From NCBI GenBank assembly GCA_951406725.2, contig OX597822.1:52328001-52392000 (forward strand): a DNA stretch of 64,000 bases, written 5' to 3'. Below, piece by piece: positions 15,869-54,893 of this stretch; positions within the stretch are counted from its first letter, which is position 1; each line of letters begins with the position of its first letter. The DNA comes from Octopus vulgaris. Taxonomy: Eukaryota. The position numbers and the translations under genes were made by a program. The notes under the pieces were generated by a model that worked only from the letters and a program-made list of their open reading frames with translations, did no database searches and was not told the DNA's origin.

Positions 15869-16741
15869 CTTTGAAAGAAAAAGAAAATATAATATGAATA
15901 TATATTTATATAAGTTCAGGTGTAAGCTCGTTTAAGGGATAACATCCAGGTACTTAGGTTGCCTCGTTCATCTTTGGGAAGGTCTGAGACAAAGGCTGTA
16001 TTAATAACGTCCCAGCCGGACGTCCCTGTGAGAGGGGGATGGTTCACCAGACACAACGGTTTCCTCAAGCTAACATGTTTAAGCGTCAAATGACAACCAC
16101 ATGTAACGGCGGTGCAGCAGCATGGCCACAGCTCTGAGGTGAAACTACAGAAAAAAACGTTCAGACATGAGTGTTTGGTTAAGAACCTCGCTTTCCAACA
16201 TCGCGGTGTCGGGTTAAGTCCCGCTCCTTGCCTAGTATCTTCTACTATAGTCCCGCTCCTTAGCAAGTATCTTCTACTGTAGCACAGGACCAATTAATGC
16301 ATTGCTGTATATATGTGTGCGGGGAGGGGTCTTTGTATTTGTCACCTCACCGTTTGATAATTGTTACTAGTTTGTTTACGACATCGTAACGCAACGGTTC
16401 ACAAAAAGATCGATAGAATAAATACTAGCTATAAAACATAAATACGGGGAGACAAATGAAAGAAACAAGTAAAAAATAAAAGACGTGTATGTATGTGTAC
16501 ATAAAGATAAGTATACAGAAATATGTTTGCTTGTATATGTATATGTATATATATGTGTGTGTGTATGAATGCATGAATATATGTATGTATCCGTAAACAT
16601 CACTGTGTTGTGTCGAAATGCTAAGCTTCACATTAAGCTTTGTCTTTCTTCCTCAAAGCTTCTTCTTTTCCGAGTCCCCTGCAGGTGTCCTGAGAGCCAA
16701 AGAAGGCCATGGGTACTGGCTATGCCTCCAGAAACATTAAA

Positions 16742-22937: not shown

Positions 22938-23351
22938 GCGGCGAGCTGGCAGAAGCGTTAGCACACCGGGTGAACTGCTTAGCGTTATTTCATCTGCCGC
23001 TACGTTCTGAGTTCAAATTCCGCCGAGGTCGTCTTTGCCTTTCATTCTTTCGGGGTCGATAAATTAAGTACCAGTTGCGCACTGGGGTCGATGTAATCGA
23101 CTTAATCCATTAGTCCGTTCTTGTTTGTTCCCTCTGTGTTTAGCCCCTTGTGGGTAGCAAAGAAAAAGGTATTTCGTCTGCCTTTACGTTCTGAGTTCAA
23201 ATTCCGCCGAGGTCGACTTTGCCTTTCATCCTTTCGGGATCGGTAAATTAAGTACTAGTTTCGCGCTGGGGTCGATATAATCGACTTAATCCGTTTGTCT
23301 GTCCTTGTTTGTCCCCTCTGTGTGTAGCCCCTTGTGGGCAGTAAAGAAATA
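22938..23351 (+). mobile_element. SINE family A dimer with 21-bp TSD
   Basis: Full unit plus headless unit, flanked by agaaacattaggagtactaaa at 22917-22937 and 23352-23372. Confidence 0.9.
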
Positions 23352-33554: not shown

Positions 33555-33606
<52 letters not shown>

Positions 33607-33619
33607 ATTATATAGAAGG

Positions 33620-33670
33620 AGCTTCTACAGGACTAGTACTGTTTCATTCAAGAGAAATCTTCAGGAAGCT
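33620..33670 (-). ncRNA. Type-I hammerhead ribozyme, left arm
   Basis: Exact reverse complement of 39608-39658. Confidence 0.8.
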
Positions 33671-34043
33671 ATTTAACAAGAATTGTATTAGCATTTATAC
33701 ATTTAGGCAGGTTTAAAGGAGTGGTGGTGGTGGACTTTTTGGGGGTAGGCATAGCGCAAAATATCATACTTGGGGGAGTGGTCAAGGAGTCAGTGGTAAG
33801 TTAGATGAAAGAATAGATAAATAAAAAAATAAAAAAATAAAAAATAAAAAAATAAAATAAAATAAAAAAATAAAAAATATAAAAAATATATATAAAAAAA
33901 TATATATATAAAATATATATATAAAAAAATATATATATAAAAAAGGGGGGGATAGAGTTATAGGTAAATAAGGAGATTCTCACTTATACCTATACACACA
34001 TGTATACGTATCTACACACACATACATACATACACATATATAT

Positions 34044-34090
<47 letters not shown>

Positions 34091-34974
34091 CATATACACA
34101 TGTACACACATACATACATATCTACATACACACATACATACACCCGCCCACATATACAAATTTATACACATGCACATGCCTATACCTGTCTACACATACA
34201 CACACGTATATATGCATACACTCACTCCCATGCATGCACGCATACACACATGTATATATATATATATATATACCCACGACCACACATACATATATACACA
34301 TAAAAATATATATTCATACGCACATACACTCATGCACACACAACACACCTAGTTCCCTATATACACATATTTACACCTATATATACATACACCCACATAC
34401 ACCTATGTACACATATATATATATAAACATATACACGCATACATATATATACATGTGTGCACATACATACATACACACATATATACATACACATACACAT
34501 ACACATGTGTACCTATACATACCTACACATACACACATACATACATACAAATATACATATACATATATATATATACAATCCAATACAGGCCCATTCCCTA
34601 ATTTTAATTTTATTATCTTCATTTATTACTTTTGTTATCTTTGATCGCTAGGGCTAAGAATCCTGGCAATGGCTGCATGTCCATTTGTCTGTCTACTAGA
34701 AGGCAAGTACTCATTCCCGCACGCACACTCATTAGCACGTACATTCACCCATTCGTACACTCATACACATACACGTACGCACGCGTTATATTCATACATA
34801 CAAACATCTACATACGTTCACGTATATACACATACGTACTCGTACCTACAGATTCGTGTCTACACTTTAGGAGGCTAGTCTATACATATACACCAATAAA
34901 TATACATATATATATATATATACCCGCATATACATACACACACACACATATATACTCCTACATACAGATACATA

Positions 34975-35009
<35 letters not shown>

Positions 35010-35223
35010 CAATAATAATTCTCTAAAAGGGATATAGACAGTAACTGCTCGATAACATAAGGGACTAAAGCCATCTGAATATGGCTAGGGACAGGGCAGG
35101 GTGGTGGGGGTGTTACTGTTGCATTTAGCCCCAGGCGAACATCGACGTCACCAGAAAGGCTCGACACCGTCACGGTGCCCTAAACCTGCAAAGGGAGGTA
35201 ATTCCCCGATGAAGCGGAAACCA

Positions 35224-35269
35224 CACACGGACCATGGTTTCAAGGTGTATTGCCTATCATCGGCGTGTG
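35224..35269 (-). ncRNA. Hammerhead ribozyme (CCGAUGA core) in a 359-bp unit
   Basis: Reverse complement of 36098-36143. Confidence 0.75.
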
Positions 35270-35582
35270 GTAGGCCTCCGCTTCCTCGACGAATTCTCAC
35301 TATGCAGGATTTCTTATATAGATTTTCAAGCAAAATACATTTGCTGATTTCGAAAATCTGTTCGAAAGCAATAATAATTCTCTAAAAGGGATATAGACAG
35401 TAACTGCTCGATAACATAAGGGACTAAAGCCATCTGAATATGGCTAGGGACAGGGCAGGGTGGTGGGGGTGTTACTGTTGCATTTAGCCCCAGGCGAACA
35501 TCGACGTCACCAGAAAGGCTCGACACCGTCACGGTGCCCTAAACCTGCAAAGGGAGGTAATTCCCCGATGAAGCGGAAACCA

Positions 35583-35628
35583 CACACGGACCATGGTTTC
35601 AAGGTGTATTGCCTATCATCGGCGTGTG
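35583..35628 (-). ncRNA. Hammerhead ribozyme (CCGAUGA core) in a 359-bp unit
   Basis: Reverse complement of 36098-36143, 359 nt from the 35224 copy. Confidence 0.75.
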
Positions 35629-36097
35629 GTAGGCCTCCGCTTCCTCGACGAATTCTCACTATGCAGGATTTCTTATATAGATTTTCAAGCAAAATACATT
35701 TGCTGATTTCGAAAATCTGTTCGAAAGCAATAATAATTCTCTAAAAGGGATATAGACAGTAACTGGTCGATAACATAAGGGACTAAAGCCATCTGAATAT
35801 GGCTAGGGACAGGGCAGGGTGGTGGGGGTGTTACTGTTGCATTTAGCCCCAGGCGAACATCGACGTCACCAGAAAGGCTCGACACCGTCACGGTGCCCTA
35901 AACCTGCAAAGGGAGGTCCCTAGCCATATTCAGATGGCTTTAGTCCCTTATGTTATCGAGCAGTTACTGTCTATATCCCTTTTAGAGAATTATTATTGCT
36001 TTCGAACAGATTTTCGAAATCAGCAAATGTATTTTGCTTGAAAATCTATATAAGAAATCCTGCATAGTGAGAATTCGTCGAGGAAGCGGAGGCCTAC

Positions 36098-36143
36098 CAC
36101 ACGCCGATGATAGGCAATACACCTTGAAACCATGGTCCGTGTG
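36098..36143 (+). ncRNA. Type-I hammerhead ribozyme with variant core
   Basis: cacacg CCGATGA t-agg-caataca-cct-t GAAA ccatgg TC cgtgtg: stem I 6 bp, stem II 3 bp, palindromic stem III ACCATGGT, GUC site after 36137. Confidence 0.75.
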
Positions 36144-36455
36144 TGGTTTCCGCTTCATCGGGGAATTACCTCCTTTTGCAGGTTTAGGGCACCGTGACGG
36201 TGTCGAGCCTTTCTGGTGACGTCGATGTTCGCCTGGGGCTAAATGCAACAGTAACACCCCCACCACCCTGCCCTGTCCCTAGCCATATTCAGATGGCTTA
36301 GTCCCTTATGTTATCGAGCAGTTACTGTCTATATCCCTTTTAGAGAATTATTATTGCTTTCGAACAGATTTTCGAAATCAGCAAATGTATTTTGCTTGAA
36401 AATCTATATAAGAAATCCTGCATAGTGAGAATTCGTCGAGGAAGCGGAGGCCTAC

Positions 36456-36501
36456 CACACGCCGATGATAGGCAATACACCTTGAAACCATGGTCCGTGT
36501 G
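36456..36501 (+). ncRNA. Type-I hammerhead ribozyme with variant core
   Basis: Identical to 36098-36143, 358 nt downstream. Confidence 0.75.
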
Positions 36502-37102
36502 TGGTTTCCGCTTCATCGGGGAATTACCTCCCTTTGCAGGTTTAGGGCACCGTCACGGTGTCGAGCCTTTCTGGTGACGTCGATGTTCGCCTGGGGCTAA
36601 ATGCAGCAGTAACACCCCCACCACCCTGCCCTGTCCCTAGCCATATTCAGATGGCTTTAGTCCCTTATGTTATATATATATATATATACACATATACATA
36701 CAAACACATATACACATATACACATATACACACACACACACATATGTGTGTGTGTGTGTATATGTGTATATGTGTATATGTGTTTGTATATATATGTGTA
36801 TATATGTATATGCATATGTATGTGTGTATGTATGTGTATGTATGTATAAAATATTATATAATTAGGGCTTAGGAAAATAAAATAAATTACTTTGCCACAT
36901 ACTAAACTTTCTAGAAATAGCAGCCAATAAAGTTTTTTAGCCTCTTCCACTACTTAGAGAATTTTTTTCCCTCTAACATTGTTTACTCAAAATAATATTG
37001 GTCCCTTTACATACTGAACACTTGATGAAATTGATTAATAACTAATTAACTTTACCCTCCCTTGTTGATATATATATACATATGTATATGTGTACATGTA
37101 TG

Positions 37103-38247: not shown

Positions 38248-38296
<49 letters not shown>

Positions 38297-39181
38297 GTAT
38301 GTATCTGTATGTAGGAGTATATATGTGTGTGTGTGTATGTATTTGCGGGTATATATATATATATATGTATATTTATTGGTGTATATGTATAGACTAGCCT
38401 CCTAAAGTGTAGACACGAATCTGTAGGTACGAGTACGTATGTGTATATACGTGAACGTATGTAGATGTTTGTATGTATGAATATAACGCGTGCGTACGTG
38501 TATGTGTATGAGTGTACGAATGGGTGAATGTACGTGCTAATGAGTGTGCGTGCGGGAATGAGTACTTGCCTTCTAGTAGACAGACAAATGGACATGCAGC
38601 CATTGCCAGGATTCTTAGCCCTAGCGATCAAAGATAACAAAAGTAATAAATGAAGATAATAAAATTAAAATTAGGGAATGGGCCTGTATTGGATTGTATA
38701 TATATATATGTATATGTATATTTGTATGTATGTATGTGTGTATGTGTAGGTATGTATAGGTACACATGTGTATGTGTATGTGTATGTATATATGTGTGTA
38801 TGTATGTATGTGCACACATGTATATATATGTATGCGTGTATATGTTTATATATATATATGTGTACATAGGTGTATGTGGGTGTATGTATATATAGGTGTA
38901 AATATGTGTATATAGGGAACTAGGTGTGTTGTGTGTGCATGAGTGTATGTGCGTATGAATATATATTTTTATGTGTATATATGTATGTGTGGTCGTGGGT
39001 ATATATATATATATATATACATGTGTGTATGCGTGCATGCATGGGAGTGAGTGTATGCATATATACGTGTGTGTATGTGTAGACAGGTATAGGCATGTGC
39101 ATGTGTATAAATTTGTATATGTGGGCGGGTGTATGTATGTGTGTATGTAGATATGTATGTATGTGTGTACATGTGTATATG

Positions 39182-39226
<45 letters not shown>

Positions 39227-39607
39227 ATATATATGTGTATGTATGTATGTGTGTGTAGATACGTATACATGTGTGTATAGGTATAAGTGAGAATCTCCTT
39301 ATTTACCTATAACTCTATCCCCCCTTTTTTTATATATATATTTTTTTATATATATATTTTATATATATATTTTTTTATATATATTTTTTATATTTTTTAT
39401 TTTTTTATTTTTTTATTTTATTTTATTTTTTTATTTTTTATTTTTTTATTTTTTTATTTATCTATTCTTTCATCTAACTTACCACTGACTCCTTGACCAC
39501 TCCCCCAAGTATGATATTTTGCGCTATGCCTACCCCCAAAAAGTCCACCACCACCACTCCTTTAAACCTGCCTAAATGTATAAATGCTAATACAATTCTT
39601 GTTAAAT

Positions 39608-39658
39608 AGCTTCCTGAAGATTTCTCTTGAATGAAACAGTACTAGTCCTGTAGAAGCT
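39608..39658 (+). ncRNA. Type-I hammerhead ribozyme, right arm
   Basis: agcttc CTGAAGA t-ttc-tctt-gaa-t GAAA cag-tactagtc-ctg TA gaagct: canonical core, stem I 6 bp, GUA site, AATAAA ~10 nt downstream. Confidence 0.8.
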
Positions 39659-39741
39659 CCTTCTATATAATAAATTAATTTTACTCTGCTATGTATTGAG
39701 TACCTTACTTACTGTGGTTAACCCCGAATCAACCCGGGACC

Positions 39742-39779
<38 letters not shown>

Positions 39780-39847: not shown

Positions 39848-39910
<63 letters not shown>

Positions 39911-40178
39911 TCGCAAATACTGATAGGGCACAGAAAGTGTGTCTATAGCCAGCTGGAGGAGGTATCTTCCTGGGGCTACAAACTACAGTAGCATCCACCC
40001 TTAGGGGTTAGCCATATTCAAATGGCAAATATACGTCACGATGTGTTGCTGCTACTGTTTATAACTCGCTCTGACATTTATCATTATTTTAATATATAAA
40101 TATATATATATTTATACTGTAAAAATAGATTTAATCCTATATCTTATTTTTCCCTGTCAGTTTGGATTTACTCCCTAA

Positions 40179-54309: not shown

Positions 54310-54893
54310 TTCTTCTCTAGGCAAAAGGCCCGAAATTTTTGGTGAGGGGGCCAGTCGATTAGATCGACCTCAGTGCGCAACTGGTACTTAATTCATCGAC
54401 CTCAACCCCGAAAGGATGAAAGTCAAAGTCAACCTCGGCGGAATTTGAACTCAGAACGTAAAGACAGTCGAAATACCTATTTCTTTATTACCCACAAGGG
54501 GCTAAACATAGAGGGAACAAATAAGGACAGACATAGGTATTAAGTCGATTATATCGACCCCAGTGCGTAACTGGTACTTAATTTATCGATACCGAAAGGA
54601 TGAAAGGCAAAGTCGACTTCGGCGGAATTTGAACTCAGAACGTAGCGGCAGACGAAATGCCTATTTCTTTACTACTCACAAGGGGCTAAACATTGAGGGA
54701 ACAAATAAGGACAGACATAGGTATTAAGTCGATTATATCGACCCCAGTGCGTAACTGGTACTTAATTTATCGATACCGAAAGTATGAAAGGCAAAGTCGA
54801 CCTCGGCGGAATTTGAACTCAGAACGTAGCGGCAGACGAAATACTGCTAAGCATTTCGCCCGGCGCGCTAACGTTTCTGCCAGCTCGCCGCCT
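54310..54893 (-). mobile_element. SINE family A multimer (~182-bp period)
   Basis: One headed unit followed by headless units joined at gaaata-gg(c/t)atttcg. Confidence 0.85.

Follow-up and report, generated by a model that had tools for sequence, protein, structure and literature searches.

In the genome of Octopus vulgaris, a superfamily of non-coding hammerhead repeats carries an RNA fold of about 135 nt that probably serves as a recognition element by which a helper protein of the Penelope-like (PLE) type is positioned on the RNA, a reading whose probability we put at roughly 0.6. It draws on the position of the fold around the two sites at which copies end, and on its conservation. Because the fold sits where DNA copies begin, it is probably a docking signal for the copying enzyme; recognition or priming by a helper reverse transcriptase, one of the options raised by a sequence-only reading of this DNA, gains direct positional support from the copy-end sites. 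The analysis itself shows homology of the units, their linkage to hammerheads, covariation, two end sites, a strict pairing of these sites and target duplications. The window, that is, the whole stretch of 64,000 nucleotides of contig OX597822.1 that was analysed, holds members of two families of the superfamily, A and B, together with an unrelated third hammerhead element (Table 1).

Table 1. Coordinates in the window of the retrozyme copies, the helices of the fold, the end sites and the third element
Feature	Position	Strand	Remarks
5′-truncated copy of 352-bp retrozyme (family A)	39910..40085	+	In TA tract; ends at site 2
P1 hairpin, GGCACA/UGUGUC	39927..39943	+	94% of cells paired
P2 long hairpin	39947..39977	+	AGCC/GGCU, small internal loop, C-G, U•U mismatch, covarying upper stem
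P3 long-range helix	39985..40058	+	39985-39992 with 40051-40058; 3 compensatory events
P4 small hairpin	39997..40008	+	Weakest helix; 77% paired, 0 compensatory events
P5 hairpin, GCCAU/AUGGC	40011..40026	+	GCCAC/GUGGC in other lineages
Site 1, first cluster of 3′ ends	40036..40042	+	Putative reverse-transcription start
Site 2, second cluster of 3′ ends	40085..40089	+	After P6 small hairpin and U/A-rich run
Tail-out inverted array of 359-bp retrozyme (family B)	35008..36673		Both arms in TA tracts
Minus arm of family B array	35008..35917	-	2.5 units; ends at site 2
Plus arm of family B array	35916..36673	+	2.1 units; ends at site 1
Minimal type I hammerhead, family B	36097..36146	+	Palindromic helix III
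Family B module copy	36188..36328	+	P1 through 3′ strand of P3
Hammerhead of unrelated third element	39606..39660	+	Not in the module's element
Third element, minus arm	33601..35008	-	
Third element, plus arm	38264..39744	+	Own 3′ end at 39744

One superfamily of hammerhead units

The starting observation was that 39924-40026 aligns with 36185-36297 in identical polarity. This alignment is sound, as its local score of 82.5 is reached by none of 2000 shuffled controls (mean 22.6, sd 4.2, maximum 44), and the sequence blocks and helices quoted at the time, including the C-G to A-U change atop P1, are present. The accompanying premise that the remainder of the two elements is unrelated has to be given up: the 352-bp and 359-bp units align end to end, and their hammerheads are 83% identical. 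Sequence comparison shows the two “modules” to be homologous segments within a single superfamily of non-LTR retrozymes with at least six lineages. The family A copy in the window lost its own hammerhead through truncation, while fuller copies of the family are 352-bp tandem units with a hammerhead very similar to that at 36097. Hammerhead cores lie in the window at 36104, 36462, 35622, 35263, 39614 and 33664. The two upstream ribozymes originally invoked thus exist (cores at 36104 and 39614), but the module does not belong with the one at 39608; since that ribozyme is part of a third family, the idea of “two different hammerheads” preceding the module is not borne out here, and the module is instead inherited within one superfamily. 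What is supported is a covarying cis-acting RNA structure, not previously described and linked to hammerheads, without the premise of two unrelated elements.

The third element encloses the 359-bp array between arms that are 98.9% alike. It is more than 1.3 kb long and microsatellite-rich, carries a GUA hammerhead whose helix III is stable, and is very young, the best 40 of 919 candidates matching at near 100%. Its arms, too, end at two sites, separated by about 65-70 nt and used once per arm in the 5 two-armed loci among 20, and no protein link was found for it. A link between the module and this hammerhead was rejected: 18 of 19 other third-element loci lack the module, and in the sole exception it lies about 1.2 kb off on the opposite strand.

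A search of the genome (2.8 Gb, 227 contigs) returned 726 first-look candidates for the family A module, 40 of them scored, and 655 for the 359-bp version. A pattern comprising P1 and the start of P2 gave 4139 matches, as against 19 for its control. Forty-five pattern loci were fetched, of which two (L079, L100) are chance matches. Many subfamilies are represented among the matching loci, along with the more remote lineages C, D, E and F. Units measure 338-366 bp and are colinear over their whole length in six lineages. All six bear a minimal type I hammerhead with a palindromic helix III, in some with a U3-A8 core, features likewise described for the pseudo-LTR with tail of PLEs, the core variant included (PMC4209133). 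An intact hammerhead core precedes 68 of 166 distinct module starts, at a distance of 49-61 nt in 65 of them. Its absence upstream of the other 98 is probably due mostly to truncation, and 163 of 209 copies are 5′-truncated within one unit. Where a hammerhead is present, the upstream flank continues into the unit in 178 of 186 copies; the remaining 8 leave the unit upstream, none with a common flank. Helix I of the hammerhead seems to be 15-25 pairs longer in all lineages, with differing sequences (L006 1390-1480; window 36080-36160). No PLE protein match belonging to the element was found in 143 module loci. Family A is present in 20 runs from 9 studies under four organism labels, none of these runs being listed as RNA, and the module pattern is found in 0 metagenome contigs and 0 viral contigs.

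By every feature examined the superfamily belongs to the non-LTR retrozymes: tandem units within 150-450 bp, a type I hammerhead in each, no reverse transcriptase of their own, and target duplications longer than 4 bp. Metazoan members of this class are non-coding 150-450-bp tandem units (350-390 bp in mussels) with one type I hammerhead each and larger target duplications, and PLE mobilisation has been proposed for them (PMC7229834; bioRxiv 10.64898/2026.07.22.740005). The element class is already known. The available text of these two sources describes neither a fold besides the hammerhead nor two fixed 3′ ends nor inverted insertions combining them, and the main text of PMC7229834 does not mention Octopus. 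Likewise, no description of the fold or of the rule of one site per end was found in the retrozyme literature, with subscription papers, Repbase and supplements outside the scope. In contrast to those retrozymes, no pLTR parent was found for the octopus superfamily among the 58 GIY-YIG loci fetched.

The fold and its covariation

The fold is made up of P1, P2 and the long-range helix P3, whose multiloop contains P4, P5 and an unpaired stretch. P5 had been taken for a terminal hairpin; in fact the fold runs on to 40058, where P3, absent from the earlier description, is completed by pairing with 39985-39992, so that its multiloop encloses P4, P5 and site 1. Family B lacks P4. The U•U mismatch of P2 is invariant in the 25 rows of the tree test described below, and the upper stem of P2 holds 4 of the 8 compensatory events; P5 shows 0 compensatory events on the tree.

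A covariance model built from 13 sequences, with family B left out, finds the four full copies of that family in the window at E values of 2e-13 to 7.5e-13. In a 50-row fitted alignment, 89.5% of cells pair, as against 33-44% when the structure is slid along it, and both sides have changed in 21 of 31 pairs, as against 11.3 in shuffles. The earlier claim of covariation is supported on a tree of 25 of the 50 rows, truncated and redundant rows having been dropped: compensatory events number 8 versus 1.6 for other pairable columns (P about 0.0002), the structure having been drawn from the same sequences as were tested. Breaks of pairing number 38 versus 65, and substitutions 1.39 in paired columns versus 3.18. 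The tree test is significant for the structure as a whole, single pairs having at most 2 compensatory events. Only one covarying pair falls outside the nested structure, so there is no pseudoknot signal. Single-sequence folding z-scores are weak (-0.85 to -2.2) and uninformative on strand; the strand of the fold was assigned from the hammerhead.

Two end sites and the Penelope-like connection

Nearly all copies end at one of two places relative to the fold. Among 184 distinct 3′ ends, 169 lie at these sites, one inside the fold and the other just 3′ of it: 81 at site 1, 5-25 nt past P5 and within the multiloop, and 88 at site 2, 50-78 nt past P5, the other 15 falling elsewhere. Site 2 lies about 45 nt beyond site 1, up to 60 in family C. 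In a per-family count, a TA repeat follows directly on 94 of 171 site ends. The two sites are strictly paired within insertions. Of 54 distinct tail-out inverted insertions, 50, the 359-bp array of the window among them, combine site 1 with site 2 and 4 have an odd end; none pairs site 1 with site 1 or site 2 with site 2 (P 8e-16). Target duplications of at least 8 bp flank 18 of 27 insertions at non-TA targets, compared with 2.7% in the control, and mostly measure 11-17 bp, with loose end calling. Family D (L142-L160) mostly inserts into AT-rich DNA that is not repetitive, in contrast to the preference of A, B and C for TA tracts, and its helper may have differed from that of the other three.

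The two arms of an insertion share minority variants more often than random copies do in family A (20/47 versus 8%), C (10/31 versus 9%) and A4 (40/48 versus 28%), as well as in E; such sharing is weak in the old family D (22/137 versus 12%) and absent in B (0/3). Partner arms rank below the median in 32 of 50 pairs. This sharing favours, as a leaning only, one template or one source locus per insertion.

These elements are very probably mobilised by PLEs, as they match each of the PLE marks set out in PMC8557442 and PMC11167929. Such marks are partial tandems, an inverted truncated partner, and a tail of 30-40 bp at one end (PMC8557442). The PLE protein of Anolis (Poseidon) cleaves AT-rich DNA on both strands and extends each of them, begins synthesis at two internal positions of the RNA that delimit the tail, requires RNA 3′ of the hammerhead, and is a predicted dimer (PMC11167929). 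As in PLE pLTRs, the octopus units form partial tandems with an inverted 5′-truncated partner and an extension at one end, go to microsatellite or AT-rich targets, and have two start sites 3′ of the hammerhead (PMC8557442, PMC11167929). Unlike PLE pLTRs, they have no ORF, and the tail, 30-40 in those elements, measures about 45 nt here and reaches 60 in family C. Their RNA element is a covarying multi-helix fold, whereas binding in the anole has been narrowed down no further than a 172-nt stretch and an AC-rich stem-loop (PMC11167929). The two-site pattern indicates mobilisation of the PLE type, not that the fold itself is bound.

Autonomous PLEs are present in the same genome. A carrier of the module was sought via the GIY-YIG family, tblastn, a profile, the covariance model and common flanks. 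Of 6136 GIY-YIG candidates 150 were scored, and 58 loci, some overlapping, were fetched. None holds an autonomous PLE with the module, which occurs there twice, both times as a separate insertion; all 14 different 3′ regions of these loci are without it, and the unfiltered covariance model gave no match below E 0.24 in 25 of the loci. The protein search led mostly to molluscan relatives of one PLE and gave no lead to other clades. Intact frames do occur (L132 1664-4009; L137 2082-3806), many of them of 781 aa with reverse transcriptase and GIY-YIG domains, L132 adding an overlapping upstream frame of 333 aa, and PLEs of the L132 and L137 type are candidate helpers, with the 781-aa frame of L132 and a 574-aa family among the candidate proteins. 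The L137 element shows a long/short end asymmetry like that of the retrozymes, and the hammerhead of the L132 family has a U3-A8 core and CATG palindrome in common with retrozyme family C. The last 30 nt of the L132 family form a small CUC/GAG hairpin followed by a U/A run, loosely like P6 plus site 2. Other PLE families in the genome use two end sites without the fold. The genome holds several hammerhead families, and further hammerhead elements lie in TA tracts beside PLE ends (L112/L132 5230, minus strand; L105 200, plus strand).

What the fold may do

A minor though real possibility is that the fold serves the life cycle of the RNA (keeping the circle stable, ligation, export, or inactivating the hammerhead within the circle), the starts being set by short local sequence adjoining it. 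Hairpins are indeed kept across the whole unit, not in the module alone: an extended hammerhead helix I, a linker hairpin and a hairpin after site 2 all recur in the alignments. Moreover, hammerheads in animal circles must be blocked, by means that PMC7229834 leaves unknown, and the ends of autonomous PLEs here are AT-rich and without the fold. However, in each of the five families counted site 1 falls within the P3 multiloop and site 2 follows at a constant interval, and P1-P2 is conserved above the rest of the unit, its mean pairwise identity across six units being the highest at 0.65, compared with 0.59 for the hammerhead, 0.56 for P3-P5 and 0.45-0.46 for the spacers.

Conservation at the DNA level, as an internal promoter or an endonuclease homing site with the helices as a by-product, is improbable. 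Tandem units must carry their own promoter, and the linker of families C and D contains a B-box-like word; yet this word is missing in A, B and E, and a tRNA search found no tRNA-like part in the units. The compensatory changes include G-U intermediates, seen as 22 one-sided changes that retain pairing, which also argues against this alternative. The lack of a tRNA, the fixed hammerhead link and the two internal ends likewise rule out a tRNA-derived SINE or a LINE tail, and dispose of the possibility, raised beforehand, that the module is such a known tail occurring independently of hammerheads. A 184-bp dispersed repeat, presumably SINE-like, occurs in tandem copies elsewhere in the window (22986-23349 and 54353-54844).

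It is decidedly unlikely that the module constitutes a novel ribozyme, whether self-cleaving or ligating. A conserved multi-helix fold with an invariant U•U mismatch and an internal loop, matching no Rfam family, would suit such a motif, but only 5 unpaired columns are invariant, two of them the U•U mismatch itself, and each unit already has a hammerhead. The 5′ junctions of the 163 truncated copies, in which a second cleavage site was sought and none was found, are scattered with at most 6 at any position; 9 fall at -6 to +3 of the hammerhead site, with no clear excess, and a pile at +40 to +59 may stem from the queries used. Rfam searched by E-value at five loci gave microsatellite noise only and no match to the module, after which likenesses to SECIS, HDV-like, twister and pistol RNAs were dropped; for HDV-like, twister, pistol and hatchet ribozymes, neither a family-model match nor a pseudoknot signal was found. 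The new catalytic motif once offered as an option is therefore without support. At the gathering score, Rfam matched neither the hammerheads nor the module in the window; its sole match there is to nuclear RNase P, at 15915-16143 (plus strand; 37.7 bits, the gathering score being 28). Shared ancestry of selfish repeats alone, with the module under no selection, is very improbable, for although the families are homologous throughout and families A and B agree less in the module (0.56-0.57) than in the hammerhead (0.83), substitutions in paired columns are less than half as frequent as in unpaired ones, there are more compensatory events than under the null, and spacer identity is down at 0.40-0.46.

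Under the preferred reading, recognition of the fold by a helper PLE protein, we infer the following course. Tandem copies would be transcribed and their hammerheads would cut, whereupon the unit may circularise. A PLE protein with reverse transcriptase and GIY-YIG domains, probably a dimer, would bind the fold and make two nicks in an AT-rich target, one per strand and about 10-15 bp from each other. Each 3′ end would prime a cDNA, one at site 1 in the P3 multiloop and the other at site 2 just 3′ of it, and joining of the two cDNAs at their truncated ends would yield tail-out inverted insertions with one site per end. Because the 3′ strand of P3 is missing from any copy that ends at site 1, the full signal would be present only in tandem or circular RNA, which would favour arrays.

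Cis-acting RNA structure that recruits a helper reverse transcriptase is familiar from SINE/LINE pairs with a common 3′ stem-loop, and in L1 twin priming both target strands prime, leading to inversion. The octopus units would share this logic of cis structure and helper, of priming on both strands and of inversion. Unlike twin priming, they show two fixed internal starts in place of a 3′ tail and a random internal match; unlike SINE/LINE pairs, they have no tRNA head and no poly(A) or repeat tail, and a hammerhead in each unit.

The available text of PMC7229834, PMC11167929 and bioRxiv 10.64898/2026.07.22.740005 leaves open by what means retrozymes come to be recognised and copied, and to what part of the RNA Penelope proteins bind. 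For these questions the superfamily, whose motif has so far been seen in this genome and under four organism labels only, offers covariation across six lineages, two mapped start sites, the rule of one site per end, and target duplications. The analysis also adds mechanistic evidence beyond sequence likeness for retrozyme movement by the Penelope route, and names helices to mutate.

Penelope-like reverse transcriptases are the closest retroelement relatives of telomerase. Tentatively, the fold might be the first element to be defined by which such an enzyme recognises its RNA and sets the template boundary, offering one start site to each active centre of a dimer, with priming of both target strands on a single, possibly circular, molecule. 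If this were true, a 350-nt circle and its helper would constitute a minimal, programmable double-priming integration system.
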